From the IMG/VR virus record IMGVR_UViG_3300037424_001446: a stretch of 64,000 nucleotides of DNA. One strand, 5' to 3'. This DNA comes from an uncultured virus (IMG/VR IMGVR_UViG_3300037424_001446). Its lineage: Duplodnaviria > Heunggongvirae > Uroviricota > Caudoviricetes. Positions 34,361 through 57,572 of this stretch are shown in pieces (within the stretch, counting starts at the first letter, position 1; each line of letters opens with the position of its first letter). The notes below the pieces were generated by a model. That model saw only the letters and a list, made by a program, of their open reading frames with translations, was not told the origin of the DNA and ran no database searches. Made by a program: the position numbers and the translations under genes.

Positions 34361-34361
34361 A

Positions 34362-35102
34362 TCAGCCCTCTTTTCTAAGATAGCCCAGCATTTTCAACTC
34401 GATTATATCCTCAACGCGTAAATAAGCCGTATCTAATATCCCGGGCCGGCTGGCACGGAAGGCCAATCCATGGCGTACTGGCCATTGCCGGGTACCCAAC
34501 ACAATATATCTATCCCGCATTCCGGATAGCCTGGGGGTGCCGGCTAATTCTACATCCTGAGCGGTCCAACCTGGTTGTAGGATCTCCAACATGGCATCCC
34601 GGCGCCAGATCCCGGTGATCAAACTCATGTGATATTGCAGGGTTGGATCGGATTGGATCAAATCCAAATAACCAACATGGCCATAATCAGGGATATCCTG
34701 AGGATAGCGCGGCCCAAATGAAAACAGGCGGTCTGTGGTCAGGTCTATCCTGGCCACATATTTAAATTGTTGCATATAGTAATAAAGGATCGAAACCGCG
34801 TTGGTATTGACCGGCCTGATCAGGAAATAATCTTCCAGCATGAAAACAAAAACCTCATCGGGCATCGCCTGGAGAAACCGGATCGCGGCATCCGACCATT
34901 TTTGAGCTGGATAATCAGCAAAATTTCCAATTGAATAATAGGTAGCGTAGGGGGGTAATTCCCATTCGGGAGGCGTAAAGCCGGCTACAACGACCTGGGG
35001 GATCGGCTGCCAGTATTTTTCCAGCAGCCAAAACCAGGCTTTCAGAGCCCATTGGTAGTGATCAGAGGTGAATACAAAAATCCGATAAGCGGGGGTTGTC
35101 AT
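34362..35102 (-). CDS. Putative GT-A glycosyltransferase
   Basis: VFTSDHY...KWSD...FMLEDYFL; context. Confidence 0.55.
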   Translation of the reverse strand: MTTPAYRIFVFTSDHYQWALKAWFWLLEKYWQPIPQVVVAGFTPPEWELPPYATYYSIGNFADYPAQKWSDAAIRFLQAMPDEVFVFMLEDYFLIRPVNTNAVSILYYYMQQFKYVARIDLTTDRLFSFGPRYPQDIPDYGHVGYLDLIQSDPTLQYHMSLITGIWRRDAMLEILQPGWTAQDVELAGTPRLSGMRDRYIVLGTRQWPVRHGLAFRASRPGILDTAYLRVEDIIELKMLGYLRKEG

Positions 35103-36813: not shown

Positions 36814-38640
36814 TTATTCAGCCGGATGGCCCTGCAAAACCCATTCGGAAAAGCCCCCTAATGGATCCCCGTGAGGGGCGGCATCCTTCAGCCGGCTATC
36901 TTCCTCTTGCAGGTTGTCATCGGCCTCAGATGGAACATAGGCGCCCCCAGCCGCGGGCGGCATATCACCTTTCAGGGTTTTCAACTCTTTGGCAAGGGTG
37001 CCGATCTTCTTTTCCAATCCGATAATGGTTTTAGCCTGTTCCGCCTGGCTGGTATTGGCAGCTTCTTTCTGGCTGGCACCCATTTCCTCGATGGATTTGA
37101 GGCGGGTCAAAACAGGGGTCAGGGCATCCGCGAAAACGGTTGCCATGATGCGGGCATACTCATCCGGATTCATATCCCCGAGATACGGCCCGCCGTAATC
37201 CTTTTCTCCCTCTTCCTCAGTTTCTTCCTCGGATTCTTCCTCAGTTTCCACTTCGGTTTCTTCCTCGGTTTCTTCTGCCTCGTCATCCGCCATGGGCGGA
37301 ACGGGAGGTTTCTTCTTCGCCTTTTCGGCAAAATCCAGGCCGGCCGCGGCCGCGTCTTTCTGGACATTTTTGGCCCCCTCCAAAATCGCGCCTGCCAACT
37401 CAGGATCGTCTACCAGCGCCTTCAAAGCCTTAATCTTTTCTGCTAAAGTGGACATAGCTGACTCCTTTCGTAAAGTTACAAAATCTGTTAATTGATTGGC
37501 TACCCTGCCCCGCGGTACCAAAGACCGTTCATACCTTCTGATCGTGTGGAAAACCCCCCTATCATCCGGCTCGGAAAGCGGATGGTTAAACCCTAAAGAA
37601 ATCTGGTAATCTCCCCCGCGCTCTTCCAGGGCGGCGCCAATTTCCTTGTAACGGAACGTGCCTCCCTCGATAAGCGTGGGCCCATACACCATATTAAACG
37701 TGCAATCTCCAACATCAACCCCGGGAATATGCCAAAAGCGGAGCGGCCCATAATCGCCTGATAGATCCGCCCGATCGCAATCCTCCGCCAGGGCCTTGAG
37801 GGACACAATTTCCCTATCCCTATCACGGAACGCATTGGATGAATAAGCAATCCAGATATATTCCCCATCGGCATTTTTGAAAACCTTTATCCGGCTGCCC
37901 GTGTTCAAAACGCCGGCCTGATCCGCCTTTTGGCGATTGCCCATCGATCCTTTGAACTGCTTAATAATGATCCGCTTTGTGGCTGAAACCGTTCCAAGAT
38001 CATAATCAAAGCGGGCATCCCCCCAGGCCACAGTTATCGTATCAAACGTAATTGGCAGGGCCGGAATTGGAGCGGCCTGGGGGGTTGGGGCATCCTCCGG
38101 AATGTATGCCAGGGTGATGTGGGGAGTAAAACCATGATTAGATAAAATGGGCTGGCCATTACTCTCCAGGGCAGCGATAAGATCCTGACGGAATGAATTT
38201 AATTCCGGAGCGTCAAAACTTGCATAAAAAGGATTGGTGCCATCCTCTTCAACCTTCAGGAAACGCCCAACTCCCCCAATTTGCCCGCTAAGCGGTTGAT
38301 GGGTGCCGGCAAAATCTTCAACGATTTCGGTAAGTTTATCGATCGGGATTCTTGTATGATCGGTATCCTCGAGATAGGCCAGGGTAATGTGAAAATCCGT
38401 GGGCGGGAGCGGTTGGCTGCCAGCCGGAAGATCCATCGGCTGAAGGATCAGGGGAGCCGTGAGCTCGGGGGGAACAAATAAAGCGACCATAACGCCCGTG
38501 TGTGGTGCCCGGGTAAACGCCTTGGTGCGTTTCACCTGCCTCCCGGTCAGCTTATCCCAATTCAGGGCCGCGGCCATAGAATCGGCGCCCACATCAGCCA
38601 AAGATCGGTGTTTCTTAGATAAGGGCGGTATTTTCTTCAT
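36814..38640 (-). CDS. 2H phosphoesterase fused to HK97-type prohead protease and acidic scaffold
   Basis: FHITLAY and PHITLAY; RDRDREIV, PLRFWH, ISLGF, YERSLVP..VAN; Glu-rich coiled-coil tail. Confidence 0.82.
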   Translation of the reverse strand: MKKIPPLSKKHRSLADVGADSMAAALNWDKLTGRQVKRTKAFTRAPHTGVMVALFVPPELTAPLILQPMDLPAGSQPLPPTDFHITLAYLEDTDHTRIPIDKLTEIVEDFAGTHQPLSGQIGGVGRFLKVEEDGTNPFYASFDAPELNSFRQDLIAALESNGQPILSNHGFTPHITLAYIPEDAPTPQAAPIPALPITFDTITVAWGDARFDYDLGTVSATKRIIIKQFKGSMGNRQKADQAGVLNTGSRIKVFKNADGEYIWIAYSSNAFRDRDREIVSLKALAEDCDRADLSGDYGPLRFWHIPGVDVGDCTFNMVYGPTLIEGGTFRYKEIGAALEERGGDYQISLGFNHPLSEPDDRGVFHTIRRYERSLVPRGRVANQLTDFVTLRKESAMSTLAEKIKALKALVDDPELAGAILEGAKNVQKDAAAAGLDFAEKAKKKPPVPPMADDEAEETEEETEVETEEESEEETEEEGEKDYGGPYLGDMNPDEYARIMATVFADALTPVLTRLKSIEEMGASQKEAANTSQAEQAKTIIGLEKKIGTLAKELKTLKGDMPPAAGGAYVPSEADDNLQEEDSRLKDAAPHGDPLGGFSEWVLQGHPAE

Positions 38641-41600
38641 TGCTGAACTCCCGCGAACAATCCAACCTGGCCGGCTGGGATCAGCTCTTCAACGTCCGTG
38701 GTTAACAGGCTGTTTAGAAGATCATCCGGGCTGATATCGATATTCCCGAAAACGCTGGAAGTAACCTGTTTCGGATTGGGCGCCTGAGCAACCAGGTTGG
38801 CATATTTCCGGAAAAACTCCCGGAGCGTTTTGGGCTTCCTGGCAATCGAATCGAATTTCTTCAATAAAGACAATTGGCGATTATTCAACTCTTTGCCAAA
38901 CATCTGTATTTGAGAGAGATAATCCGGAACAGGGATTCCCTGTTCTTTCAGCCTGGCCAGCATATCAATCGCTTTGGCGAAATCTCTTGCCAGGCTGAGA
39001 GCTGGTTTTCTTTGCCCGGATCCGATCAGCCATTCCGCTTTGGCCATTTGCGGCAGGCTCGCGCTCATGGCGTTTTCGAAATTCTTAATTCCGGGGTCCA
39101 GGCTTTCAAGGTAAGTATCTGCCAGCCTTTGGCCGGCTTCCCCTGGAAATACCCGGCTGAATACAGCCGCCTTGATCCTCCAAAGCCCCATCCGATTCAA
39201 ACTGCCATCCCCGCGCAGGAGCGCGGCCCGCTCATTCTCGGGAAGCGATCCAACGAATGATTGAACGAACGCGGTATTATTCTGGCTTCGCAAGGCCGAC
39301 TCAATAGTTTGATCTTCTTCAACCTTGAAGCTGGATAGGGATTTATCGTCAATGATCTTTACATCCGCCAGGGCTTGCTCAAGCGGGCTCATATCCAGCG
39401 TGGTTCGCTGATTGGTTTCGGCAGCAAATTTGGCCCGGTCAGGAACATCCGTTACCCGTTCCCGTACCAATACCGGAGCTTTCATCCCCTTGATATCTTC
39501 TTCTGTCATGCCGTAATCGTCTAAGCGGTCTTTCAGGGCACCCTGATATTTATCCCATTGCTCAGGGAACTCTTTTCGAGCTTTATCTAACGCCAGGGTG
39601 CGCCCATTGCCGGCCTCTACCATGTTATCCGCGCCAACGATCATGGGCCCTTCGTCCAGCTTATGGAAATCGGTAAGCAATCGATCCGGGTTTAGATCCG
39701 ATGCAATTGTATTGATCTGGCCTTCTGAAGCCTGCCGGCTGCGAATCCGTGGTTGAAGGGCCTGATCATAATCCGGGTTGATTTCACCACTCGGGGAATT
39801 GGAGGTTACCATATCATCCAATTCCATAAGTCGATATTTGAACTCATAAATCTTGTGGGCATCGGTGCCATAAGCAACCGCCGTGCCTCCGTAAGCTGTT
39901 GGACCAGGCGCCTTTTCGCCGCCTTCTTTTTTCTGTTTGTCCAACTCTTTACGGGCATTCAATCTTTCTTTGGCGATCTGATTATCGATTCCGGAAGCGA
40001 CCCATCCAACCTGGCGTGATTTTTTATCTACGGATTCCTGAAGGTCTGAAAGAGCATGCAACTTCTCTTTCGGGTCTTTTATAGTTTTATTGATATTGCG
40101 GATCCGGTTTTTAGTTTCAACCAGAGCATCATAAATATCGCCAGGGATTTCCCCGCGCCCGCGAGCTCGCTTCTTATATTCCTGCCATTCGGCTGATCCT
40201 TGCCCGGAGATCCGGCGCGCCTGCCCCATGCTTTGGCGCCCATATCGCCAGCCGTGGCGTTCCTGAGGGTGCTGCCCCGCCAGGTGCTTGATCCGGAATG
40301 CCGGCAGGCCCGATATAAAACGGCGTGTTCCTTTCCTTGGAGCATCCAGCCTTTCAAGAAAATCTTTCACGGATTTGACTACCTGCCATTTCATAATATC
40401 TGCCATGCCGGGCATATCCAACCGCAATTGATCATTGGCTTCCAACTGTTCAATAAATGGCGCCCGCTCCGCCGATAGATCGTTGATCTGCTTGTAGATT
40501 TTCCCTAAGCGCGCCCAACCGGAATCCGGATGCATTTGAACTTCCCGCTTATAATCATCGATCAGGCCCATGATTTTATCGTTATAGTCCGTTACCCGTT
40601 TCCTGGCCTGCGATATCTTCCAATCATGCCATGGATCGGTTTTCGCCTCCTGAAGGATCGGCTTTTCTCGCTCTTCCCAAAACGCTTCCCTTGCCTCGGG
40701 GGTCGCATTCAAAAGCTGTTTCCGCAACCAGGCTTCCTGAGGGGATACAGCTTCTTCAACTGGCTTTTGCCCTCCAAACAGCCCAAATTGAGGGGCCGGG
40801 CCTTCTCTCTTGGGAGGGGTGCTCGCGCTTGCCGGCTTTTGGCCACCAAACATGCTGGTTTGCCCTTCCCCTCCGCCTCCCCCTCCGCCCTTATCGGGTC
40901 CCATCATAGCCTGGGCCCAAATCCCGTGGCTGGCCTGATCGTGCGCGCCAGGAAGATGCTTATTCCGGCTGCCGCGCCCATGCCAGCCTTTTGACCGGCT
41001 CTTCTCTTCCGCTACCTCAGCTTCCAATAGGATCTGGCCAGTAGTTTTATTTTTGAATTGGAAATTTAGATCCTTCAAGAATTGATCCGGATCGATCCCA
41101 TATACTTTGGCATATTTGGCGAACTGCTTTTGCCCTAGATCCAATATTCTCTGAAGCCGATCCGCCTGAGCATTGCGGCCCAATACTACCTTTAGATGAT
41201 CACCCGCCCATTGGAAGCGTAAGATATTTCCGCCCAGCATCCCCAGCACAAATTTTGGAGTAACCGGGGTCAATTCGTTTGCAGCCCGATTGAGAGATTC
41301 CTTGAAGCGATCCGAGAAACCGGATTTGGCAATATTCTGACTCATCTGGCTTTGAGCGGTTTTCAGGTCGATTTTCTTCTGCCCCAAATTTTCAATGACA
41401 GAAATATTGTCGGGTATCAGGCGCAAAACCGGGGGGAGCTTTTCTTTTTGGAACAGGGCTAAATTATCAGCAACTCTTACCGCGGTGCCCTTCAGGTCGT
41501 TTTCCCAATCGATACTGGTTTCGAAATGGGTAGATATCATGTGGCCAATATCGGAGGCCTCCCGATCACCCATCGCTTTCTCAATCAACGGGCGAATATT

Positions 41601-42404
41601 TTTATCGTAATGTTGGGTAGACCATCTAGGATGCTGTTCATCCAAAAAATTCCGGCTGGGGGGCGCCATGTATCCGGTATCATGGAAGATCTGAGCGACT
41701 ACCATGCCGGCCATTTCGCCCGGGTCATCCGCGCCAGGATGTTGCTGTAAAATCTCGCTGGCGAAATTGATGTTCCCGGAAATATGTGCAATCCCATGAT
41801 CACCCAACACGCGGCCGGCGCTTTCATAATCCTGAGCTGCCAGGGCATCAATGGCCTCCATTGCTATTTCATGCCGATATGCCGGCTTTACGCCTGCCAT
41901 GGATAGAAGGTCATCCAACCCCGTTGAAATGATGCGGATTTCATCCGTGGTGGTAGTCGGTATAAGATCCCCAATTTGGCTCAGCCGCTTATCGATCGAT
42001 ATTTTTACGTCATTTTTATTGAGATTTGGGCGGGCGCCGGCATCCTTAAGCAACTCGTTTTGATAAGCTGGAATAGATTTGGTTGGATCCGCCTGGGTAT
42101 CCTGATCTTTAGCCGAAAGAGCGTTCCAGGCATCCCGCTTCTCCTGAAACCCCATCGCGTTCCATTTATCGGCATCGAACTTGGTTTCGTATTCTCCCCC
42201 TTGCGCCCAACTACCATGCGCCCTTTGATCGTGCTGGCCTTCAAGGTGCTTTTCCTTTTTAGGGGCCTCAGATGCATATAGGGCGCGCATCTGAACGGAT
42301 GCGCGCCATTTCGGCAATGGCTTATCGCTGTATTTTTTACCTTTATCATCCACCACGAAATACTTATCTTCGCCTGCGGATTGCAACTGCCAGGGCATGG
42401 CCAT
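38637..42404 (-). CDS. Polyvalent protein: HD domain + unknown module + ddrB-ParB domain; 3 tag motifs
   Basis: DHGIAH...FHDTGY...H...H...ADN; LQPRIRSR...GPMIV...VEAGNGRTLAL. Confidence 0.85.
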   Translation of the reverse strand: MAMPWQLQSAGEDKYFVVDDKGKKYSDKPLPKWRASVQMRALYASEAPKKEKHLEGQHDQRAHGSWAQGGEYETKFDADKWNAMGFQEKRDAWNALSAKDQDTQADPTKSIPAYQNELLKDAGARPNLNKNDVKISIDKRLSQIGDLIPTTTTDEIRIISTGLDDLLSMAGVKPAYRHEIAMEAIDALAAQDYESAGRVLGDHGIAHISGNINFASEILQQHPGADDPGEMAGMVVAQIFHDTGYMAPPSRNFLDEQHPRWSTQHYDKNIRPLIEKAMGDREASDIGHMISTHFETSIDWENDLKGTAVRVADNLALFQKEKLPPVLRLIPDNISVIENLGQKKIDLKTAQSQMSQNIAKSGFSDRFKESLNRAANELTPVTPKFVLGMLGGNILRFQWAGDHLKVVLGRNAQADRLQRILDLGQKQFAKYAKVYGIDPDQFLKDLNFQFKNKTTGQILLEAEVAEEKSRSKGWHGRGSRNKHLPGAHDQASHGIWAQAMMGPDKGGGGGGGEGQTSMFGGQKPASASTPPKREGPAPQFGLFGGQKPVEEAVSPQEAWLRKQLLNATPEAREAFWEEREKPILQEAKTDPWHDWKISQARKRVTDYNDKIMGLIDDYKREVQMHPDSGWARLGKIYKQINDLSAERAPFIEQLEANDQLRLDMPGMADIMKWQVVKSVKDFLERLDAPRKGTRRFISGLPAFRIKHLAGQHPQERHGWRYGRQSMGQARRISGQGSAEWQEYKKRARGRGEIPGDIYDALVETKNRIRNINKTIKDPKEKLHALSDLQESVDKKSRQVGWVASGIDNQIAKERLNARKELDKQKKEGGEKAPGPTAYGGTAVAYGTDAHKIYEFKYRLMELDDMVTSNSPSGEINPDYDQALQPRIRSRQASEGQINTIASDLNPDRLLTDFHKLDEGPMIVGADNMVEAGNGRTLALDKARKEFPEQWDKYQGALKDRLDDYGMTEEDIKGMKAPVLVRERVTDVPDRAKFAAETNQRTTLDMSPLEQALADVKIIDDKSLSSFKVEEDQTIESALRSQNNTAFVQSFVGSLPENERAALLRGDGSLNRMGLWRIKAAVFSRVFPGEAGQRLADTYLESLDPGIKNFENAMSASLPQMAKAEWLIGSGQRKPALSLARDFAKAIDMLARLKEQGIPVPDYLSQIQMFGKELNNRQLSLLKKFDSIARKPKTLREFFRKYANLVAQAPNPKQVTSSVFGNIDISPDDLLNSLLTTDVEELIPAGQVGLFAGVQQ

Positions 42405-42409
42405 CCTCC

Positions 42410-42516
42410 AAAAACAAACCTCCGCGCCAATACTGGCGCGGAGGTCAAATTCCGCGGTACCACGGGTATCTTACCCCGCGGTGACCAATTCAAATTATTT
42501 TGTGCTTATTATAGCA
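42410..42516 (-). promoter_or_regulatory. Promoter plus structured leader/terminator, copy B
   Basis: Same architecture as copy A; identical 20 nt core ccgcgccaatactggcgcgg. Confidence 0.75.
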
Positions 42517-42522
42517 TAATTA

Positions 42523-42777
42523 TTATTCTGCCTGATACACGGGAAACCAGGTAGGGCGGCAGCCACAATTAAGACACAAAACCCGAACTTTCATAGAAAT
42601 AGCAAAATTGCCGGCAAATAAGAATTGGCCATTGGTGGGCGCCAGGGGAGCCTTACAGCGCGGGCAATGCCAATCCGTGATGATCAAACCTGGCGAACTT
42701 GCCAGCTTCAACCCCGGTTGTGTGACACTTCCGAATCTATCGCCCGTTGAAGGACTTGGGGTAGCTCTTTCTTCCAT
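42523..42777 (-). CDS. Zn-ribbon protein
   Basis: CPRC...CLNC; start uncertain. Confidence 0.55.
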   Translation of the reverse strand: MEERATPSPSTGDRFGSVTQPGLKLASSPGLIITDWHCPRCKAPLAPTNGQFLFAGNFAISMKVRVLCLNCGCRPTWFPVYQAE

Positions 42778-43166
42778 TTTTCCTGTATTGTTTCCGCGAA
42801 CTCCCGGGCCTTAATGCCTGGCCGCGGATGCTTCTTGCTAATGTAAGCCATACCACCCCGCCCCTTAAAGGATGCAATCTTTCCGACCGCGGTTTTCGCG
42901 CTGAAACCCGGTGTCATGGTTGCATACCGAACGCGTGTCCCTCCGGAAACAAACTTATAGATCTTATTGAGCGTATAAATATATCGCTCGAACTTGCCCG
43001 CCTTGATAACGAACTCAGGCCGGCCCTCCCAGGTTTGGGTAGTGACATTGAAATCTACCTGAACGCCCAGAGCAGCCGCATTTAGACCGTTATCAATCGC
43101 CCGGGTGAGCCGTTTAGGATCCGCAACCAAAGATTTTGGAACAAACACTTTCATTTGAATTTTCAA
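42708..43166 (-). CDS. HK97 gp10-like neck/head-completion protein
   Basis: Basic; YKFVSGGTR...HPRPGIKAREF. Confidence 0.7.
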   Translation of the reverse strand: MKIQMKVFVPKSLVADPKRLTRAIDNGLNAAALGVQVDFNVTTQTWEGRPEFVIKAGKFERYIYTLNKIYKFVSGGTRVRYATMTPGFSAKTAVGKIASFKGRGGMAYISKKHPRPGIKAREFAETIQEKWKKELPQVLQRAIDSEVSHNRG

Positions 43167-43408
43167 TAAATAACCCCCGGTTCCGATTCGATTTCATAGG
43201 GTCCTATCTCCCCGCTCAGCCACTTTTGGGCTTCTTCAGCCATCGCAAGATCTAGGCTCGGGGTGTATCCTTCGGGCACCCAACCATCAAAGATGATTTC
43301 CAGCATTTCCTGAGCCTCATCTGAGGCTTCCCATTCGCCCGCCTGGAAACTGATCACCATACCATTTTTCATGGTCAAAACTGCCGGCTTAATCGTTTTC
43401 TCGCTCAT
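43163..43408 (-). CDS. Small acidic protein, possible partner or immunity protein
   Basis: 81 aa, ATGA-coupled to the upstream peptidase gene. Confidence 0.65.
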   Translation of the reverse strand: MSEKTIKPAVLTMKNGMVISFQAGEWEASDEAQEMLEIIFDGWVPEGYTPSLDLAMAEEAQKWLSGEIGPYEIESEPGVIY

Positions 43409-45498
43409 TCTGGTATCCCTTGTACGATCGATAAAACTAAATCAAACATTTCCGGATCCCCCGTGGCCAGCTTATAAGGATTGTTGAACAAATACTCCAA
43501 TCCCATGCTTATAATTTCCGTGGCGCCATCCTGATATATTTTACCAATATATCCCTCAATAAACTTATCCTTGATGATCAGCTCAGTATCACGGCCCTTA
43601 TATTCAGTGATCTTTTTGCCGGCTGTTCGTTTCTCAAGAAAGTTTTTGGCCCGCCCCCAAAGATTATTGGAATGATTCTCAATCCAATGGCCCAACTCAT
43701 GGGCCAATTGGCCGCGGATCAATTTCGCATTTCTAACATTATAGGGGCTTACATTGGTAATGTGAAGAGCATCCCCCTTGGTCGAATAATAAGCGCGGCC
43801 GGCAGGCGATTCGCCTACTCGGATATCGGAGCTTCCATATACAGCCGCGATTTTACCGATTTCATTCAATTCGGATTCGATAAATCCCCGGGTGTAATCG
43901 CTTAGGTCCTGGCTGTAATCATGTTCCCCCTCAACCACCTTCAGATTTATATGCCCGCCAGATATATCCACCTGATCAATGTACTTACCGCGAAATTTGT
44001 AAACTGGATTGAACGTGGCCGGCGTTTCGGCTTCCAATTCCTGGCGGGCCTCATCTTCCAGCTTGTTTATGCGTTTCTGAAGTTTCGTGCGCTCTCTCTT
44101 GTGGGCGCGCAATTCATGTTGTAAATCCCAAAATTCTCTGTGATATCCCCGGCCCAGCCTTTCCCGGGTTTCTCTTGCCTGTTTCGCCATTGCCCGGGTT
44201 TTGGCATCCATGGCAGCCAATTGATCATATTCGGGCTTCAGCTTGCTAACAAATGATTCTCGAACTCCCGAGGCGGTCCGGCCTGACGATGAGGCCCGCG
44301 CGGCCCGTTCGTTCCTGATCGCCCGCTCAAATAATGGGATATCCTCCGCGGCATCCCCATCCGGAGCATACCGATCTTGCCCGCCCCTTGCCCAACTCCC
44401 GTGGCTGGATTGGTCATGCTGGCCAGGAAGATGCTTTTCCCGGGTGCCGGCCTCCGGGATATCTTGGACAATCGATAAAACCAGATCAAACATTTCCGGA
44501 TCTTCAAGCGCCAATTTCTGAGGGGCAGTAAATAAATAGGCCAATCCCGTGCTTAATATTTCGGTAAATTTTGAGCCTGGATAAAACTTAGAGGTGTAAC
44601 TGCTAATAAAATTACCCCCATAATAGCTTTCTCCCGTAAAAGGATCTTGGCTAATCTTACCATCTGAGCGGCCTATCAGAAAATGATAAGATCGCTCCAT
44701 TGCCTCAGGCACATTGAATTCGATCCAATGGCCCAACTCATGGGCGATGTGTTTGGCCATCAAATCTTTGCTCAGCCCATCCTGATCATGCTCCAATTTC
44801 AAGGCGCTTACATGGATCGCATTATCGCCCGGATCAAAGCGAGGCCGGCCATGGGATGGGAAAATCGTAATTTTAGCGTCCTTCAAAATGGGCGCCATGG
44901 CGCCAATCTCGGGTAGGATCTGATCATTGATATAACTCTTGGTGTATTCCGTGAAATCATTCCAGCCCTCTTCCTCAGTCCATTCCCTCCCGAATTCGGC
45001 TGTTGGATTGGCCGGCTGATCGGATTTGATTACCTCCCTGGCGGCATCCGTTAAATCCCACCACTTTGCTTTTTCGGCATCGTGTTCCTTTTTTGCTTTT
45101 TCCAGGGCCTCAGAAACCTCAAAGCTGGATTTATCCCAATTCATATAAGCCTGGCGATATGCCGATTGCAATTGGTCTAATTTGCTCTTGGATTTTCTAT
45201 ATTCAGCGTAAGAGCCTTCTAATAAAGAAAAGATTTTCTCGCGCGCCTGCGCTGAATTTGCATTGCCGGCAGCCGGCCCGCCTGAAGCCCAACTCCCATG
45301 GCTGGATTGATCGTGCTGGCCAGGAAGATGCTTTTGAGCATCCCCGCCAATCTCTTCAACAATTACATCCGATTCGAAGAGCCCCTGAGCAATCCCAACA
45401 TACAAAAGGATTGCATCTGAGCCCCACCTGGTATTTTCTTTCAACCAGTTTACGGCCTCATCATAAGGCATGGCAGCAATATCGATTATTTGATCCAT
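43405..45498 (-). CDS. Double HExxH metallopeptidase-like protein; 2 tag motifs
   Basis: AHELGHWIE twice, each followed by TEI[LI]S.GL.YLF and DPEMFDLVLSIVQ. Confidence 0.88.
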   Translation of the reverse strand: MDQIIDIAAMPYDEAVNWLKENTRWGSDAILLYVGIAQGLFESDVIVEEIGGDAQKHLPGQHDQSSHGSWASGGPAAGNANSAQAREKIFSLLEGSYAEYRKSKSKLDQLQSAYRQAYMNWDKSSFEVSEALEKAKKEHDAEKAKWWDLTDAAREVIKSDQPANPTAEFGREWTEEEGWNDFTEYTKSYINDQILPEIGAMAPILKDAKITIFPSHGRPRFDPGDNAIHVSALKLEHDQDGLSKDLMAKHIAHELGHWIEFNVPEAMERSYHFLIGRSDGKISQDPFTGESYYGGNFISSYTSKFYPGSKFTEILSTGLAYLFTAPQKLALEDPEMFDLVLSIVQDIPEAGTREKHLPGQHDQSSHGSWARGGQDRYAPDGDAAEDIPLFERAIRNERAARASSSGRTASGVRESFVSKLKPEYDQLAAMDAKTRAMAKQARETRERLGRGYHREFWDLQHELRAHKRERTKLQKRINKLEDEARQELEAETPATFNPVYKFRGKYIDQVDISGGHINLKVVEGEHDYSQDLSDYTRGFIESELNEIGKIAAVYGSSDIRVGESPAGRAYYSTKGDALHITNVSPYNVRNAKLIRGQLAHELGHWIENHSNNLWGRAKNFLEKRTAGKKITEYKGRDTELIIKDKFIEGYIGKIYQDGATEIISMGLEYLFNNPYKLATGDPEMFDLVLSIVQGIPE

Positions 45499-46562
45499 CC
45501 CAATACCCTTAGATAGTTATCCATAGCATCCGCAATCGGTTCAAAATCGTTATCATCCCAATCGTAAGGAAAGCCGGCTGTGATATTAAACCCATTTGGG
45601 CTGATAAAATCGGTGCTCAGCGTGGGCCGGCTCCGAGCAGCATTTAACTCCGCCAAAAGGGCCGGATGGCCTGACCGGAGCGCAACATATTGGGCATACG
45701 CCCGCGCAAATATTTCGGCGGGCTTCCGTAAATAGACCACAAACTTTTTATCCAGGGCAAACCGTAATTTTTCCCCCTTCGAATTTGTTCCTACTAAACT
45801 GCTGGGGGAGCGAATCATTTTCGTGAGCGTTTGATAAGATTTACTCTCATATATGGCTTCATACAGAGCCTTACCTGCCCGCCTGACCTCGCTGGGGATT
45901 TCTACCTTTACCATCGAATCTTCATAATTCAAAGCGTTATTAATGTAATCGAAGGTTTCAACGGCATTTCCCAGGCCGCGATGGTCTATAAAATGCCCAA
46001 TTTCGTGAACCGTATTCATCAAAGGATAGTCAGCATCTTCTTTAACTCTGATAACACTTTCGAGAATTTCTTGATGACCATCCGGAAACGTTTTCCTTTT
46101 GTAATGATAGGTTCCGGAAGATAGTTTAGCGCCCGATGGAACGATTTTTATAACTGGCAACTCCCCATCCCCATTAACCCTATCGATTGCCGATATCGCT
46201 TCCCTAACTATTTGTTCGTGGCCGGCCTTCAAACCATTGATTCTCAGCTTGTCACTGATCTTGGACCCGTTTGGTTGATGATACGAGGGGGGAGCAACCT
46301 GAAAATCATCAAAACTGACTTGCCCGGCTGTAACTACTGGCCGCGCCTGGCGGTAAGGATGCGATTGGCCCTCCACATCCCCGCCCGTGGCCCAACTCCC
46401 GTGGCTGGCCTGATCGTGCTGGCCAGGAAGATGCTTCTCCCGGGTGCCGGATTTCAGGGCGGCGTGAGCTGCCAGGTCTTGTTTTTGATAATCCCCAATT
46501 GTTTTGATCCAATCCGCATTCAGATCGGATCCGGTTGCATCGATCACTACTTTTTTATTCAT
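45486..46562 (-). CDS. HExxH metallopeptidase-like protein; 1 tag motif
   Basis: VHEIGHFID...EIFARAYAQY; likely start MNKK. Confidence 0.85.
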   Translation of the reverse strand: MNKKVVIDATGSDLNADWIKTIGDYQKQDLAAHAALKSGTREKHLPGQHDQASHGSWATGGDVEGQSHPYRQARPVVTAGQVSFDDFQVAPPSYHQPNGSKISDKLRINGLKAGHEQIVREAISAIDRVNGDGELPVIKIVPSGAKLSSGTYHYKRKTFPDGHQEILESVIRVKEDADYPLMNTVHEIGHFIDHRGLGNAVETFDYINNALNYEDSMVKVEIPSEVRRAGKALYEAIYESKSYQTLTKMIRSPSSLVGTNSKGEKLRFALDKKFVVYLRKPAEIFARAYAQYVALRSGHPALLAELNAARSRPTLSTDFISPNGFNITAGFPYDWDDNDFEPIADAMDNYLRVLGWIK

Positions 46563-46585
46563 GGAATATCCCTGCCACAAGAGTA

Positions 46586-47881
46586 TTATAAAACCGGATA
46601 ATCCGTATATGGATCACGCTGATAAACCACCCCAACCTCATCGGGCGATTTCCCATTGTAAACAACCACTTCGAACTCTTCCAGGCATCCAAAACCGGAT
46701 CTGGCGGTACAAAATATTCTTTCTACCGGAATAGTCATTCCCAATATATAAGCATAATTATCCCTTTTCTGGCCAAATCTGCCGGCCACTCCAAAGCGCA
46801 GGGTCCAGCTTTCCATAAAATTCTGAGTAAGATCTGCAATATCCCCAACCTTGAGGGGTAATGAATCTTCAAACCCTACCCCGCGATAAACGATCAATTC
46901 TTTTATGCCGGCTTGTCGAAACTTATCCTGTGTCCAATTATACAATTCCTTGAAGATAGCGCGGTATGCTTCTCGCTCCGTTCTAAATTTAGCACCAGGC
47001 TTGGGGCGCCCATATTTATCCTGGAATGGGGATTGACTGTTTTCGTTCAACTCCAGATCCCCAGCCGGCGCCTGGTTCCGCAATTGGACCATATTGGCGC
47101 CCAGGTCAGAATAATCACTCCACAAAGAGGATACCTGGTTGTTTATCTTTTGCGCATCTTGCGGATCCTTAGAATATTTTGCCGCATTTTCCATTCGCTC
47201 AATATCGGATCGGATTTCTTTCCGCTTATTCTCTAGCCCCTCAAACTCTTTGATAACTTCCGGATGGCTCATATTCCAATCGATCTGATTCTGGCGCCCC
47301 TCCGCAACAATTCTAAGCCGCTCAGCTTGCCAATCTGATAGCTCTTGACCCATCAACTCAGCCGCATATTTTTGGGCAATCAAAGAAGCATAATGCATAT
47401 CATTGGCTGATTGCGCCCAATTTCCGATAACTTGATTCGCCTCATCGTAATCCACGCCGGCTTTTTCAGATATTCTGGTAACAATTTCATCCTTTTGCCG
47501 CTTGATTTCCCCCTCATCAAAAACGGCTGAATAGGCGCTTATATTCATAAGGGCATCGCCCAATTCCCGGTTTTTGCTGAACTGTAAGAAATCTTGATTG
47601 AAACCTTTGGATGGTGAGTTTTGAGGCATCTCATTGACAAACCAGCTCAAACCCTCTATTGATTCACGGGTCTTATTATTCAAAACCGGCCCGGCTGCCT
47701 TCCTCCATTTCGCCCAATTGCCATGGCTGGATTGATCGTGCTGGCCTGCCAGGTGCTTCTCTCGGGTGCCGGCGTCTGAAGCTGGGTAAGCCGCCAGGTC
47801 TTTCATTTGATAATCCCCCACTTTTTTGATCCAATCCGCGTTGATATCGGATCCGGTTGCATCGATTTTTATTTTCTTCAT
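46586..47881 (-). CDS. R-S-E class ADP-ribosyltransferase; 1 tag motif
   Basis: VYRGV, ESWT, EFEV. Confidence 0.85.
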   Translation of the reverse strand: MKKIKIDATGSDINADWIKKVGDYQMKDLAAYPASDAGTREKHLAGQHDQSSHGNWAKWRKAAGPVLNNKTRESIEGLSWFVNEMPQNSPSKGFNQDFLQFSKNRELGDALMNISAYSAVFDEGEIKRQKDEIVTRISEKAGVDYDEANQVIGNWAQSANDMHYASLIAQKYAAELMGQELSDWQAERLRIVAEGRQNQIDWNMSHPEVIKEFEGLENKRKEIRSDIERMENAAKYSKDPQDAQKINNQVSSLWSDYSDLGANMVQLRNQAPAGDLELNENSQSPFQDKYGRPKPGAKFRTEREAYRAIFKELYNWTQDKFRQAGIKELIVYRGVGFEDSLPLKVGDIADLTQNFMESWTLRFGVAGRFGQKRDNYAYILGMTIPVERIFCTARSGFGCLEEFEVVVYNGKSPDEVGVVYQRDPYTDYPVL

Positions 47882-50800
47882 TCGAAATATCCGAAACTTT
47901 GCACAATATCTTGAACTATGGCAACCTCATCGGGAGCTTTGCCATTGTAAACAATCACTTCGAACTCTTCCAGGCACCCAAACCCGGATCTGGCGGTACA
48001 AAAGACCCGTTCAATAGGAATTTTCATTCCCAGGACGTAAGAATAATTTACCATCCCCTGGCCAAATTGGCCGGCAATGTGGGATCGCAGACTCCAGCTT
48101 TCCAGGAAGTTTTGGGTAAGATCCGCGATCCCCCCAACCGTAACCGGCAAGCGATCATCGAATCCTACGCCTCGATAAACAACCAATTCCTTTATGCCAG
48201 CCTGGCGGAATTGCTCTTGTGTTTGCTTATACATGGCTTTCAATACGGCCCGCATTGCCGCTTTCTCGCTTTTGTACTTCAGGTCTGGTGACAACCGGCC
48301 ATAAGCATCTGTAAACGGGGATACTAAATTGGGAGGCATATCCATAGAATTAGGCTTTCGGGCAATATCATCCATTTCCCGGCCAACGTTATCTAATTGG
48401 GTGCTTGCTTTTGCCAATCTATCGCCTACCGAAAATAACTCTTCCCGATCCTCAGCCGGCCAATCGTCAATATTAACATCCCGGTTTTTGTGAGATAGTT
48501 TTTCGTTACGATCATACAACACACCCATTTCGATTGTAAGGCGTTCCAAATCGCCTTTCAGGGTTTCATATCTGGCAATCTCTTCCGGATGGGATTTATT
48601 CCAATCTATAAATTCTTTCCTGGTTTCCGCAACCCCATCAAGTTTGTGTTTTTGCCAATCTGATAATTCCTGACCCATCAACTCAGCCCCTACGCTTTGA
48701 GCAAGCAACGAGGTATATTTTTCATCATTGGAACTACTCGACCAACTTTTAACCACGTTGCTTACCTGATCCGGAGTTAATCCGGTTTCGGCAGCTATCT
48801 TTTCGGCAATTTTGGCCTTTTGGGCCGGCGCCTCGGATTCTTCGAACACATCCATAAATTCATCCCCTGTTTTCTTTTCTTGCTCCCAAATTTCCTGAGT
48901 AGCGGCGCCAGGATTGCCGCTCACTAGCGCATTTCTAACAAAAAAATGCGGGCCGGGTCTATCCGGATCAACATGCTCAGACAAATACCAATTCATACTC
49001 TCAAAAGATTCGGTTGTTCTGCCTTTGAAAACCGGGCCGGCTGCCTTCCTCCATTTAGCCCAATTCCCATGGCTGGATTGATCGTGCTGGCCAGATAGAT
49101 GCTTCTCCCGCCTGGCCTGGCGGAAGCGTGGATTACGGATTCGAGCTGGATTGAGCTCTTTTTTCTCTTCCGAAGTTTCATCCAACCATTCATAATACTT
49201 GTTCAATATCTGACGCGGATCATACATCCGCTTCCCCCCGGAGGAAAGCGAATAATCCAGCTTACTAAGCAACCTCTTGGTATCAACGGGCCGCATTCCC
49301 AATTGTTTTAGAAACGCCTGAGCGCGGGATGATACGGCAAGAGGCCAGCCGTGAGTAATGAAATCTCTCATTCCGGTTGTAAGCGGATCTTGCGGCTTAT
49401 AGGCTATTTTACGATTGCGGAATAAATCCAGCGTAGCATTATGCTCCGCCTGAATTTTTACACTTTCCAGGGTCTTTTCAAAATCGGCATCCGCCAGGGC
49501 AGCCATGGAACGCGGCGGATCTGCGAACCATCCCAGCCCGGATTTTATTTTTGGTCCGAATCGATACTTGCTCTGATCCTCTTCAAAAATGGCATACTTG
49601 CCCTTTGTGAGCGGCATAGAGCCTTGCACGAACTGATAACGCCCATATTTCCCATCAATATATCCCAAATAATACCCAAACCCGCCCACAATGGGTTTGT
49701 TGGAATGATCGGCGTTTGGATCGGGCGGCTTAGTTGGATCTACTACTATTTTATGCTCAGCCGGCATCCAGGTTGGCAGAGGCGGAAGAAGCGTGGGCTC
49801 TGAGGGGTTTTTCGGAGCATCATTGAATAAATCTAACTGCCTGGGCGGGCCCCCGCCTCCCTTATCTGGCGCCCAATTGCCATGGGCAAGCTGATCGTGC
49901 CGGCCAGATAAATGCTTGAGCGCGCTAACTAAAGATCCTTTTAGCGATTTCAGCATGCTTGGATTTTCGGGGTCAAATGTGCCGATATTGGCCAGGGCTG
50001 ATTTCACCTGGCGCGGGTCGTAAATCAATATTTCTGATAGCCGCCATGGAACTGTCACTTCCCCGGTTTCGTCATCCCGATATCCGCTATATTCCAATAC
50101 CCCATCATAGCCGGCCTTCTTCAAAATGGCCGTAAATCTGGATGCCCCGATCTTCTTTACCAGATGCAGGAGAAATCCCCAATTATCTTTCCCAGCTCGT
50201 TTATCATTATATTTTGCTATGGCCTCCCCTTTTGTAAAGCCGGATGCCTCAACAATCCCGCCTTTGCCAATACTTTCTTTTTCCCAGGTCTTTACAACAT
50301 GCCATTTCGTGGCACCCTTTGTATCCTGAAATTGATCAGTAAATAAATAAAATTCGCTATCGCCCTCGTGGTAGCTGTGATAAATCTCTACGGGCTTCAG
50401 GGTTTCATCTAATTTCAGCTCTTCCGGGATCCCCTCCAATCCTTCCAGGGATTTCCTGAAATTGTAACTGTTAGTATATCCAGTAGAATTATCATCATAT
50501 ATTACAAAGGGCTTTTCAACCTTCAGATAAGCCGGGATGATTTTGTTTCCGAACTCATGGGCATAATCCGGATCTGGTGTGAAGTATGCCCCCTGGCCTA
50601 ACCAGCCCGAATCGGTTATCCCCCAGCCGCTTGTTTCAAATTCTGTGAACTCAGGGGCTTCCCATTCGCCGGCTTGCTCGGATCTCACGTAAGGATTATT
50701 GCTGTACTCCGGATGGGTTGGGGTGCCGTGATAAGCAACCAGGGGTTTTCCCTGATCATCTACCACTTTCGATTTTCCAAACCAGCGTTTGAAATTAGCC

Positions 50801-52170
50801 TCCCGCCGCGGGTCGCCTGCCGGCAGCTCACCCGCCTGGCCATGCGCCCAACTCCCGTGGCTGGCCTGATCGTGCTGGCCTTGAAGATGCTTCAGCGCGC
50901 CAGGCTGAGAGATATTTCCGATCGCTGTATCTACCTGGTTTAGAGCGGCTTCCAATTGCCGGATCTGGCTATACAATTCATCCATCCGGGAATCCGGATC
51001 GATTCCGGTCTTTCTTTTGAAAGCTGCTCGCGCCCGTTCTGTATAATAGCTTGGATGCATGCTCCGATCACCATGCCCCGTGATAGAAGAGCTCGCTTCC
51101 AGGCCGACTCCAACCTGCCCCAACAGCTTATATTCATCTATGGCTTTGGCCAGCCGGCTTTTCAACTCCCCGCGCCTGGCAATCCATTTTTCGATGGGAG
51201 GTTGCTCCCCGCCCGCGCCCGCCCGATTGCCGTGATCCGCCTGATCGTGCTGGCCAGGAAGATGTTTCAGCCTGGGCATGGCCATCTTTCGCATGATCGT
51301 TAGATAGCGATCCGAATGCCCCTCTTTATGCTCTTCCCGCCATTGCTGCTGCTGCTGAGCCCAAAGGCGCTGCATTTCCAGGTTTCGGATAACCCCTTCC
51401 GTGAAACGTTTGGTATCAGTATATTTATCAAAATCATCCGGGCTCATGGTGTATCGATGCCCGGATGTAATCAGATCCGCGGCCGCTTCAACCCAGGTTT
51501 TGAAGCCGGTATCACCCGAGAAACCATCCCGATCAAAATAGGTAGCCTGGGCAGGCGCATCCCGATATTTGGCGGAGGGATGGACCACGGCGCCCCGAAA
51601 CTCGCGACCTGAGCGGCCATTGGTCAATACAAAAGGATCATCCCCCTCCCCGCCAAATCTCTTGCGATAATATTCGATCATGGCATGGCCGGCAGCTTCC
51701 CCAATGGGATGCAAATCGTTCTTTAATAGGGTTTCAACTGATAACGGCTCTTTCGCATAAATCGTTTTCCGGTTAGGGCTGATCATATCGCCAGGATGAT
51801 CAGCACCCAGGATCCGCTTACCGCTCCAATAGGTATAATTCATGCCAGCCGCTTCCAGCTCACTATGGGGGGTCTTGCCCTCGGAAAGCCAAAAATGGGT
51901 AGGCGCCCGATGGAACAACCTGGCTAATTTGCGCTCTTCCGCGTTGGACCCATGCGCCCAATTGCCGTGGCTGGCCTGATCGTGCCTACCGTGCTTTTCG
52001 GTTGATGCCGGCTTTTCCAACTCAGGCAACGCGCTGAATGGCGCCGGCTTAGCGGTCAGGAAAAGCGGCTCCGGATAATCGCCGGGGGGGATATCGGTAA
52101 GAATGGGCGGGATTTTGTATAAATCCCGATCATCAATACCATCTGGAATAGGTAGTGGAAGTTTAGCCAT
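47878..52170 (-). CDS. Polyvalent protein with ART-PolyVal-like and R-S-E ART domains; 5 tag motifs
   Basis: NFKRWFGKSKVVDDQGKPLVAYHGT...GAYFT...GYDGV...QVKSA; C-terminal VYRGV/ESWS/EFEV. Confidence 0.88.
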   Translation of the reverse strand: MAKLPLPIPDGIDDRDLYKIPPILTDIPPGDYPEPLFLTAKPAPFSALPELEKPASTEKHGRHDQASHGNWAHGSNAEERKLARLFHRAPTHFWLSEGKTPHSELEAAGMNYTYWSGKRILGADHPGDMISPNRKTIYAKEPLSVETLLKNDLHPIGEAAGHAMIEYYRKRFGGEGDDPFVLTNGRSGREFRGAVVHPSAKYRDAPAQATYFDRDGFSGDTGFKTWVEAAADLITSGHRYTMSPDDFDKYTDTKRFTEGVIRNLEMQRLWAQQQQQWREEHKEGHSDRYLTIMRKMAMPRLKHLPGQHDQADHGNRAGAGGEQPPIEKWIARRGELKSRLAKAIDEYKLLGQVGVGLEASSSITGHGDRSMHPSYYTERARAAFKRKTGIDPDSRMDELYSQIRQLEAALNQVDTAIGNISQPGALKHLQGQHDQASHGSWAHGQAGELPAGDPRREANFKRWFGKSKVVDDQGKPLVAYHGTPTHPEYSNNPYVRSEQAGEWEAPEFTEFETSGWGITDSGWLGQGAYFTPDPDYAHEFGNKIIPAYLKVEKPFVIYDDNSTGYTNSYNFRKSLEGLEGIPEELKLDETLKPVEIYHSYHEGDSEFYLFTDQFQDTKGATKWHVVKTWEKESIGKGGIVEASGFTKGEAIAKYNDKRAGKDNWGFLLHLVKKIGASRFTAILKKAGYDGVLEYSGYRDDETGEVTVPWRLSEILIYDPRQVKSALANIGTFDPENPSMLKSLKGSLVSALKHLSGRHDQLAHGNWAPDKGGGGPPRQLDLFNDAPKNPSEPTLLPPLPTWMPAEHKIVVDPTKPPDPNADHSNKPIVGGFGYYLGYIDGKYGRYQFVQGSMPLTKGKYAIFEEDQSKYRFGPKIKSGLGWFADPPRSMAALADADFEKTLESVKIQAEHNATLDLFRNRKIAYKPQDPLTTGMRDFITHGWPLAVSSRAQAFLKQLGMRPVDTKRLLSKLDYSLSSGGKRMYDPRQILNKYYEWLDETSEEKKELNPARIRNPRFRQARREKHLSGQHDQSSHGNWAKWRKAAGPVFKGRTTESFESMNWYLSEHVDPDRPGPHFFVRNALVSGNPGAATQEIWEQEKKTGDEFMDVFEESEAPAQKAKIAEKIAAETGLTPDQVSNVVKSWSSSSNDEKYTSLLAQSVGAELMGQELSDWQKHKLDGVAETRKEFIDWNKSHPEEIARYETLKGDLERLTIEMGVLYDRNEKLSHKNRDVNIDDWPAEDREELFSVGDRLAKASTQLDNVGREMDDIARKPNSMDMPPNLVSPFTDAYGRLSPDLKYKSEKAAMRAVLKAMYKQTQEQFRQAGIKELVVYRGVGFDDRLPVTVGGIADLTQNFLESWSLRSHIAGQFGQGMVNYSYVLGMKIPIERVFCTARSGFGCLEEFEVIVYNGKAPDEVAIVQDIVQSFGYFE

Positions 52171-53828
52171 TAATAGATTACCTCCCGCGCGGCCTCGTGC
52201 TCTATCATGCGGGCCGGATCGATTTCCCAGGTATATTCCATGTGGTATTCAGGGTGATCATTGGTGAACTGCAGCCAAACCTCATGCCAGAAATTGGCGG
52301 AATATTCGCGCGGATTGATAATTCCCAGCTTGATCGCGTTGGATAAATTCTTGTTCGCGGTGAAATGGGATGCCGACAAATCGTTTTGAAATTTCAGGTT
52401 ATCCCCCAACTTGGTAATATCTATTCTGGATTCTCGGGGGTTGAAGCGCATGATATAAGTGCGCCCCCAGGGAGTAACGGCTCTGATTTCCTTGAACCGG
52501 GCGGCAAGGGCCGTAGTGATATCTTGCTGGCTAAAAGTTGATCCGGCTGTAAATGGATCATTTTCCGTAAAGCCTTCCGGAATAATGCTTTCTAAGGGCC
52601 TGGTTAATCCATGCGAACTGTGAGTAGTCAATAATTGAGGTTGAAAATTCCTGTAATACTCCCCAACAAGCGGATCCTTTAATAGCACATCCCGGCGCAA
52701 TTCTGGATTTGCAGGATGATTATGGATCAGGGTTAATTCATTCGCTTCTGAATATTCCCCATCGTTTTCGAAATGGGAATTGGTATATTTATAGATTGTT
52801 TCCATGGCAGCCCCGGTTATTTTGATGGTTTTGTTATCGCCATGGTCGCGATATTCGGTTTCACCTTTTGAGTTTAAGAGATACAGAATCTCATAAGGCT
52901 CTTTGTGAATTTCCCTTTCAATCTCCCGGATCCGCTTTTCCCTGGCATATTCACTTCCGCCAGAGCGCGCCCGGGCCCGCCGTTTGAAGTCGGCTGAGCT
53001 GGCCTCGAAGGGATGATAATTCCCATAAGGGCGGGTTTTGCTCAGCCGGCGCATAGTGCGTTTGGCAGCCCCAAAGCTCCCGTATCGATACCCATGGGAA
53101 AGCTGATCGTGCTTGCCGGCTAAATGTTTCAACTTGTGGCCCAAAAGAGCTTCCAGCTCACCCTGGATTGCTTCAAATTCCTTATATTGGTACTCGGGAA
53201 TCTCTCCCCCGATCATCGATTCGGGAATGATCAAAACCATATCCCGGATCTGAAGGGGCTTCCATAACCTGGCGCGCTCCAGGCAGGTTTGGCAATGCTC
53301 CGTTTTCACCTCTCGGGTAGCGTTCATCACCCAATAGCAATCATAATCCCCCAACTCTTCCGATAAAACCCGCACATCCCAGGCGCAAGCGCATAATTGG
53401 CCACATTGGGATGTGAGATCTCCGGGCATGGCCGGCAATGGCAGCATTTTTACCGCGCCCTTCCAATAAGGGGCGATTATCCCCCTGGCGTAGCTGGCAG
53501 CCCGCCGATACCATCCCTGCTGGAATTCCCCCTCGGATTGGATCACCAATCCAAAACCGCTCAAATAATCCAACTGAGCGTGAATGTAAGGGCTGATATT
53601 ATCACGATCCGTTTGGGTCAAAACGCCCGATTTCTGGCCAGCCATATAAGCCGCGGAATGGAATCGGGTAACCAGGCCGGCAATCTCTGTAAGCCACTCT
53701 TCCAGGGTCTTTCCGGCCTTCTCCAACTCTTCCACAAGGGTTAGGATTTGATCCGTAAAGGATTCGAGCAACCAGCGCAAATCTGGCGGATAACCCGAAT
53801 AATCGTAATCGGATACATTGGGCGGCAT
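52170..53828 (-). CDS. MuF-like minor head protein with C-terminal JAB/MPN-like domain; 1 tag motif
   Basis: Directly after the portal gene; Cys cluster PGD..SQC..LCAC and EHCQTC; C-terminal E...IHNHP...TFSQQDI. Confidence 0.75.
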   Translation of the reverse strand: MPPNVSDYDYSGYPPDLRWLLESFTDQILTLVEELEKAGKTLEEWLTEIAGLVTRFHSAAYMAGQKSGVLTQTDRDNISPYIHAQLDYLSGFGLVIQSEGEFQQGWYRRAASYARGIIAPYWKGAVKMLPLPAMPGDLTSQCGQLCACAWDVRVLSEELGDYDCYWVMNATREVKTEHCQTCLERARLWKPLQIRDMVLIIPESMIGGEIPEYQYKEFEAIQGELEALLGHKLKHLAGKHDQLSHGYRYGSFGAAKRTMRRLSKTRPYGNYHPFEASSADFKRRARARSGGSEYAREKRIREIEREIHKEPYEILYLLNSKGETEYRDHGDNKTIKITGAAMETIYKYTNSHFENDGEYSEANELTLIHNHPANPELRRDVLLKDPLVGEYYRNFQPQLLTTHSSHGLTRPLESIIPEGFTENDPFTAGSTFSQQDITTALAARFKEIRAVTPWGRTYIMRFNPRESRIDITKLGDNLKFQNDLSASHFTANKNLSNAIKLGIINPREYSANFWHEVWLQFTNDHPEYHMEYTWEIDPARMIEHEAAREVIY

Positions 53829-57570: not shown

Positions 57571-57572
57571 TA

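Follow-up and report, generated by a model that had tools for sequence, protein, structure and literature searches.

A His-triad tag behind a candidate prohead-protease site heads arrays of putative effector modules in phage head loci

A 64,000-nt stretch of DNA from an uncultured Caudoviricetes virus (IMG/VR IMGVR_UViG_3300037424_001446; hereafter the window, to whose whole length positions refer) carries a short peptide tag with three conserved histidines in 13 copies, distributed over six minus-strand open reading frames (ORFs) that span positions 38637-53828. The window is a segment of a tailed-phage genome, with genes for a terminase, a probable portal, a protease-scaffold protein, a probable capsid protein, a tape measure protein and an integrase. 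We propose, with moderate confidence, that the tag belongs to a five-step cut-and-header cargo system of phage heads. In the first step, for which the sequence evidence is strong, the residue preceding the first histidine (His1), a Lys in this phage, would be the P1 site of the phage's own prohead protease. Precursor proteins would enter the prohead and be cut after that residue; the His triad would, judging by its position in the sequence, stay on the freed module as its header. The motif is widespread and apparently unpublished.

The residue before the tag and the prohead protease

A loose form of the tag pattern matched 13 times across the six frames of the window and in none of 200 residue shuffles, in agreement with a first-pass annotation of this DNA that had counted 13 copies in six proteins and no others in the window. 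One copy is a short form, K-H-G-x-H-D-Q, and one has P replacing D. The same annotation had written the motif as KHLxGxHDQxxHGxW, with Lys as part of it, and here it needs correction. A tag profile built from 102 sequences retrieved 1,588 protein clusters (clustered at 50% identity, E up to 0.001), and among the best 150 of these the residue before His1 is only K in 143, only F/L, A or E at all copies in six, and mixed in one. Pattern scans located the F, E and A forms in head modules as well, and 16 of the 17 multi-tag loci from these scans (some of them near-duplicates) are uniform in the preceding residue, a uniformity that extends to copies not selected by the pattern, such as 7 of 8 in locus L216. 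Lys was rejected as a component of the tag, since the residue varies by phage (K, F, E, A or L) and is uniform within a locus; it belongs instead to the predicted cut site, with His1 fixed at the position that follows (P1') in all lineages.

The third residue before the predicted cut (P3) is hydrophobic in 143 of 149 tags of phages with an XkdF protease, against 916 of 2755 background lysines (33%), and in 0 of 28 tags of the window's lineage. Scaffolds hold comparable sites: in phages with K before the tag (K phages; E, F and A phages are named likewise), phi-x-K followed by A or S, phi being hydrophobic, occurs 104 times versus 14.6 expected, and in E phages phi-x-E followed by A or S occurs 20 times versus 4.3, while S78 capsid propeptides have 7 sites versus 1.9 expected. 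In the window's lineage the conserved N-terminal block of the capsid protein is, by eye, directly preceded by K in 12 of the 13 distinct relatives and by R in the remaining one, and P3 is non-hydrophobic at 11 of the 12 K sites, as in the window's tags. The probable major capsid protein of the window itself (35274-36755, minus strand; assigned by position and conservation) has a candidate maturation site, R-L-K/H, at amino acids (aa) 28/29. Because the preceding residue is phage-specific, uniform within loci and matched by scaffold and capsid sites in K and E phages, it is most likely the P1 residue of each phage's own prohead protease, Lys in the window. Cleavage after Lys is found in HK97. 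Phage heads, according to the available parts of the papers cited here and below, are matured at P3-P1 words whose specificity differs among phages (PMC10052503, PMC7411985). Of the capsid-loading, processing or ejection roles originally suggested for the tag, processing is thus the one to which P1 switching, lineage-dependent P3 and scaffold sites provide a link.

Two side observations concern these sites. A relative (L276/L277, 9989-11419 and 8488-9948) has Arg instead of Lys at both the capsid site and the scaffold, a natural specificity switch within the lineage. The predicted mature N-terminus of the window's capsid protein starts K/H, and a conserved HG.GG about 14 residues further on is loosely tag-like.

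The protease lies in a single gene (36814-38640, minus strand) that combines a 2H phosphoesterase, the prohead protease (37447-37920) and a scaffold. Profile-profile alignment failed to connect the protease families, even S78 with XkdF, and a fold search was therefore used. The central domain, modelled by AlphaFold2 (AF2) with a predicted local distance difference test score (pLDDT) of 85, matched T4 gp21 (Z 11.7, root-mean-square deviation 2.6, 126 residues aligned), with herpes proteases next, and its H64 and S108 are invariant in 17 sequences; on this model, a gp21/herpes-fold prohead protease is confirmed in the gene. The N-terminal phosphoesterase matches Pfam 2H (E 1e-10) and, weakly, Acb1 (E 0.06). 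An untagged 2H phosphoesterase on the protease is also present in relatives L059 and L269, and is a candidate head-delivered enzyme against the cyclic oligonucleotide-based antiphage signalling system (CBASS).

Recognised proteases in tagged loci are all S78, XkdF, Mu-I or gp21-like. Together with the invariant His1 at P1', this would suit a reading in which the His triad is a prime-side recognition element only, making its bearer a substrate that clan-SH head proteases cut efficiently or late, with no role after the cut, and in which loading proceeds via fusion to MuF, portal or protease or via chaining of leaders; the modelled binding of a leader to its upstream module and a leader family that follows MuF genes (both described below) would fit as well. 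We nevertheless consider it unlikely, given that scaffolds and capsid propeptides are cut without a tag, that the same tag stands behind proteases too divergent for profile alignment, and that other headers occupy the same slot in the same loci. Indeed, QPRD..G.W and GHPFRGNQ follow the same P1 residue as the tag does. In L013, L016, L220, L240 and L261, the headers GHPFRGNQ, QPRD..G.W and HPGHPDQ share locus and P1 residue with the His triad.

The header and its distribution

An exact DNA pattern search of IMG/VR returned at least 206 stretches on at least about 108 contigs (contigs counted by hand). Long flanks were fetched for 33 tag-bearing contigs, and in 29 of them the tagged genes occupy the interval from portal or MuF to protease, or adjoin whichever of these is in view. 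The restriction to head modules anticipated for a motif profile run against phage and metagenome-assembled genome (MAG) databases therefore holds in these 29, and the downstream domains of relatives are as variable as had been foreseen, with diverse effector families behind the tags. Among 121 tagged proteins scanned, cargo includes Vip2-like and DRAT-like ADP-ribosyltransferases (ARTs), zeta kinase, Macro, CCA/poly(A) polymerase, topoisomerase IB, Tpt1 and SprT, and many proteins are without a family. None of 61 Pfam domains overlaps a tag, which accords with the early view that tags sit at domain boundaries, outside folded domains. A pattern scan of GTDB gave six stretches in four contigs, with about one expected by chance; the sole real locus belongs to the head module of a phage within a Nanopelagicales MAG, and the other three contigs hold single matches outside plausible genes.

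Searches of Pfam, NCBIfam and the ESM Atlas named no family for the tag, which only the unannotated phrog_2859 overlaps. Ten tag-protein clusters that were looked up had no informative names, and the tag profile met a single chance match in the PDB (E 2.2). The literature search found no description of the tag, most subscription papers and the supplements of Iyer 2017 and 2022 lying outside it. Two of the loci seen in passing have unusual gene content: the portal of L261 (10862-19747) forms a 2962 aa fusion with a DarB-like methylase-helicase, and L243 (10267-14943) has HipA/PI-kinase-like modules behind His tags preceded by E.

The tagged proteins might alternatively be late intracellular polyvalent effectors rather than virion cargo; the motif would then be a linker that binds metal or promotes oligomerisation, and the residue before it would have no part in processing. 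With arrays reaching 15 kb the load would be large, and some tagged genes do lie outside the portal-protease interval. However, the preceding residue tracks scaffold sites phage by phage, tags are fused to portal, MuF and protease proteins, and the great majority of the contigs place them in head modules; we regard this explanation as decidedly improbable.

At the protein level, the first tag is preceded by a leader of at least 11 aa (median 36; 125 ORFs), many copies are internal, and none stands at a native N-terminus. The linker after the tag is Gly-rich (27% Gly versus 9%), and the loops of the tag family vary in length while H..Q..H is kept. In the second step of the proposed system, the six precursors of the window would yield 13 modules of 14-61 kDa, each starting with H-x2/4-H-D-Q-x-x-H-G and the Gly-rich linker.

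Synonymous identity among tags is near the codon expectation in 11 other genomes (0.45-0.56 versus 0.42-0.51), which argues that the tag peptide is kept by protein-level selection. In the window it is raised (0.64 versus 0.45 expected), which points to recent tag copying. This raised value, together with repeats that begin at the Lys codon and cassettes that break at tags, is what would be expected if the motif were a DNA repeat promoting cassette recombination, with no function as a protein. Yet the other genomes have third positions near saturation with the amino acids kept, loop-length variants retain H..Q..H, and the one real locus that GTDB holds is a phage head module; this is the least probable of the explanations that we weighed.

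In the cut-and-header system, the third and weakest step is that the header may recruit or hold the module in the head and let it leave with the DNA. As the sole element common to all cargo, the header is most likely the handling signal. The tag is found with at least four capsid and at least four portal PHROG families, which argues against one conserved protein partner and would favour contacts with metal, DNA or a channel; the contact is probably metal-assisted or to nucleic acid, and independent of capsid, portal or protease family. If cut as predicted, the tag would bear a likeness to the histidine brace of lytic polysaccharide monooxygenases, in which an N-terminal His is exposed by cleavage. 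An AF2 model of the tag plus ART was uninformative, with a tag pLDDT under 40 on a 13-row alignment.

Leaders, cassettes and the array of the window

Leaders were compared after removal of twelve redundant or near-identical loci and of overlaps, which left 122. Of 86 pairs of similar leaders, 61 share the upstream module only, one the downstream module only, nine both and 15 neither. Counted by leader family (most of these coming from one group of related phages), 13 are tied to the upstream and one to the downstream module, with four ties, and one family follows a MuF gene in 8 of 9 cases. DNA blocks 80-96% identical begin at the Lys codon, and an ART cassette of the window is duplicated from tag to tag, leader included. 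Leaders travel with the upstream effector and the shuffled cassette therefore runs tag to tag. In the fourth step, which is shown at the level of sequence, tag DNA also serves as the crossover point, the shuffled unit being tag - effector - stop/start - leader - Lys. A comparable toxin-immunity order of cassettes is known from polymorphic toxins (PMC3482391).

We abandoned a reading of the leaders as one shared loading signal, as there are many leader families, each tied to its upstream gene. The exceptions, the leader of the window's 1255 aa protein and (by eye) those of L060, resemble protease extensions. The L060 leaders before three tags (8950-11831 and 6350-7231) look, by eye, like the C-terminal scaffold helix of that phage's own S78 protease, and are a possible loading signal in that lineage.

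Among the 47 classifiable ARTs in the window's family, 34 are followed by an I-D-x-DW-x-K peptide, which belongs to the same chain in 26 cases and forms the leader of the next gene in eight; among Vip2-like ARTs this is so for one of 73. The counts leave out seven and 12 unclassifiable cases, respectively, and the link spans distant K, E, F and A phages. A complex model of the window's 431 aa ART with the leader of its 364 aa protein scored 0.62 (best control 0.02), the mark for this score being reached by 116 of 157 solved pairs and 2 of 215 mismatched pairs. In the model, contacts agree to at least 50%, the partner has a pLDDT of 47-49, and the peptide adds a strand beside the catalytic Arg, which suggests that leaders are effector-specific inhibitor peptides removed in head maturation. 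In this fifth step, which is partly modelled, the leader would be an effector-specific partner that holds its effector inactive inside the producing cell, most likely by inhibition, and loss of the leader in the prohead would leave ARTs, zincins, kinases, HD and JAB modules armed only in the mature virion. One 7059 aa protein (P0003) has about 20 headers, most of which belong to a two-His variant; its 11 ARTs come from a single family, and the DW peptide follows nearly every one.

More tentatively, it is possible that capsid cargo in unrelated phages carries one header code that does not depend on the protease, so that each freed module starts with the His triad wherever the local enzyme cuts and is read by a common factor (metal, DNA or the exit channel), and that the arrays are strings of polymorphic toxins in which the immunity peptide is the cleavable leader of the next gene and head maturation both separates and arms the toxins.

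Several observations weigh against the proposed system. The scaffold-site test was negative in the window's own lineage (1 versus 2.4 expected) and gave a weak result in F and A phages. L260 does not fit the pattern, with A before His though its protease and capsid carry K sites. The existence of the two-His variant weakens the case for a strict three-His metal site. In four of the 33 contigs the tagged genes are outside the interval: in two they neighbour the terminase, in one they are 3 kb beyond the capsid gene, and the last is unplaced. Within the DNA fetched, just 2 of 19 loci of the window's lineage have tags, and the arrays are therefore accessory; furthermore, a 35-aa tag stretch and the capsid protein, used as tblastn queries, had no match among 50,697 GenBank phages, the short query having low power. 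Linkage of leaders to upstream modules in group A phages can arise from tag crossover alone. As for the ART peptide, 13 of the 47 ARTs are without it, 11 of 54 domains come from one protein, and the peptide is present in only 20 of 34 proteins; its conserved DW part was not placed confidently in the model, and the peptide could just as well be a strand split off from the ART domain.

In the window, the array and its flanking head genes are all on the minus strand. The terminase large subunit gene (55460-56968; Pfam TerL_nuclease, E 5e-12; phrog_9, E 2e-41) is adjacent to an untagged probable portal gene (53832-55445), which, like the capsid gene, had no match in Pfam, PHROG or NCBIfam. The first-pass annotation had placed the six proteins between portal and protease. 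The position agrees; the array is split into two blocks, of 10 and then 3 tags, by three small untagged genes, and of its flanks the protease was confirmed by fold while the portal (and likewise the capsid protein) is named by position alone. Neighbouring array genes all overlap or abut stop-to-start.

The first tagged gene (52170-53828) encodes a 552 aa protein in which a MuF-like lineage core part (aa 1-233) is followed by Tag 1 (K234/H235; 53082-53129) and a JAB-like module. It has a MuF-like position and a conserved Cys/His N-terminal part, yet no Pfam MuF match; this part matches a 182-186 aa gene of relatives L267, L269 and L271 (E<1e-40). The JAB-like module has HNHP and S..D motifs, and its structural look-alikes occur in fusions with MuF, minor capsid and portal proteins. 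The five other tagged genes are without a MuF-like domain, and MuF-tag fusions are present in other loci.

The next product is a 1430 aa polyprotein (47878-52170) of five tagged modules: two unknown (243 and 125 aa), an ART-PolyVal (325 aa), another unknown (271 aa) and an R-S-E ART (407-408 aa). They follow Tag 2, the short form (K59/H60; 51955-51996), Tag 3 (K302; 51220-51267), Tag 4 (K427; 50845-50892), Tag 5 (K752; 49870-49917) and Tag 6 (K1023; 49057-49104), which opens the first copy of the duplicated ART cassette. The 431 aa protein (46586-47881) consists of a leader with the acidic I-D-x-DW-x-K peptide (47759-47881, its start overlapping the upstream stop), Tag 7 (K42; 47711-47758) and an R-S-E ART that belongs to a DRAT-like family and shares 45% identity with the module ending the 1430 aa protein. 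The leader is a candidate partner or inhibitor of that upstream ART in the 1430 aa protein. In this ART family R and ExE are invariant and S is kept in at least 90%; two members match Pfam DRAT, and the best Foldseek rows are the ART toxins TreX/TreTu, at E 0.05 only. A second I-D-x-DW-x-K peptide forms the leader (46437-46562) of the 364 aa protein (45486-46580; likely start 46562), which continues with Tag 8 (K49; 46389-46436) and an HExxH zincin-like module. The 697 aa protein (43405-45498) has a leader and two paralogous HExxH zincin modules (299 and 343 aa) behind Tag 9 (K56; 45286-45333) and Tag 10 (K355; 44389-44436).

Three untagged genes follow. The 81 aa product of 43163-43408 is a candidate immunity protein or partner of the upstream zincin, with a homologue (E 9e-9) after the same zincin family in L052; in L056, an 88 aa gene (1295-1558) after a zincin-ending protein looks similar by eye. 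A 152 aa lineage core gene (42708-43166) has homologues in 10 relatives, and a small Zn-ribbon-like ORF of 84 aa (42523-42777) has none in the loci compared. Finally, the 1255 aa protein (38637-42404; likely start 42398) combines a leader with HD-like (430 aa), unknown (224 aa) and ddrB-ParB (549-550 aa) modules behind Tag 11 (K52; 42204-42251), Tag 12 (K482; 40914-40961) and Tag 13 (K706; the HPQ variant; 40242-40289); its leader resembles the N-terminal extension of relatives' proteases (E 2.7e-5 with that of L269).

The module lengths of the 1430, 1255 and 697 aa proteins reproduce those annotated at first. In the list of module types, ART-PolyVal and ddrB-ParB stood, both above Pfam cut-offs, as did three HExxH and two R-S-ExE ART motifs; the HD and HNHP..S..D (JAB-like) modules, one of each, are motifs with no family match, a weak Prok-JAB being the sole lead. 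One zincin matches MPTase-PolyVal below the Pfam cut-off. The tagged proteins thus carry the polyvalent-protein domain set (ART-PolyVal, MPTase and ddrB-ParB types), encoded with head genes.

Elsewhere in the window, a glycosyltransferase (1009 aa), a methyltransferase-like gene, a DegT-like aminotransferase and a further transferase-like gene lie between the capsid and tail genes (29128-35102), an arrangement repeated in L011, L023, L059 and L216 and possibly a virion or DNA glycosylation block. Upstream of the terminase, two genes with repeated CGA.T..G..C...GRC..HGG units (56871-57941) are presumably the small terminase and a paralogue. The regions 4612-6123 and 10745-12161 hold a cytosine methyltransferase-like gene, an integrase (phrog_1) and an adenine methyltransferase-like gene.

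Comparison with known systems and significance

By analogy, the proposed system would resemble a combination of T4 internal proteins and MuF polymorphic toxins; of the features that define the T4 capsid targeting sequence (CTS), it lacks two. As with the CTS of IPI-III and Alt, which are packaged in the head, processed by gp21 and ejected, a short peptide is common to unrelated head-associated proteins, an ART included, in phages with a gp21-fold protease (PMC7411985, PMC9958956). The CTS, however, is N-terminal and removed, whereas the His-triad tag lies after the predicted cut and would, from its sequence, be retained; it is also internal, present in up to 10 or more copies per protein, and spread across differing capsid, portal and protease families. 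Two points thus set it apart from a T4-type loading tag: no copy stands at a native N-terminus, and the predicted cut comes before it.

As in MuF polymorphic toxins, variable effectors follow the portal or MuF, and small candidate partner ORFs lie downstream, a toxin-immunity order in which a single crossover would carry both (Jamet 2017, PMC5576092; Zhang 2012, PMC3482391). Unlike in those toxins, one locus, and even one polypeptide, carries many effectors, most of them lacking MuF, each cassette has a fixed header, and the putative partner often forms a leader, predicted to be cleavable, on the following cargo gene. The pre-toxin motif VENN is likewise conserved at the border of variable toxins, but before the cut, whereas the tag would be after it. 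A table in PMC3482391 lists PT-VENN.

Phage polyvalent proteins and P1 DarA/DdrB similarly combine ART-PolyVal, MPTase, ddrB-ParB and 2H in large head-associated proteins predicted to be injected (Iyer 2017, PMC5512222; Iyer 2022, PMC9503650). The available parts of those reports propose autoproteolysis by MPTase and describe no header motif, in contrast to the prohead protease and repeated site proposed here. In SPN3US/phiKZ heads, too, many internal head proteins are matured at a three-residue P3-P1 site, gp245 cutting at A-X-E; there, propeptides are removed, and the available account reports no conserved prime-side header, only a preference for Ser at P1' (PMC10052503).

How phages choose, hold and eject internal proteins is understood in few models (T4, P22, T7 and the giant phages). 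A header found in more than 1,500 protein clusters would predict the specificity of each phage's protease from sequence, and would delimit, at residue precision, hundreds of candidate anti-host or anti-defence effectors, paired with candidate inhibitors. If the proposed role of the leaders is true, toxins would be kept silent until the capsid matures, and the header might offer a portable signal for loading proteins into phage heads.

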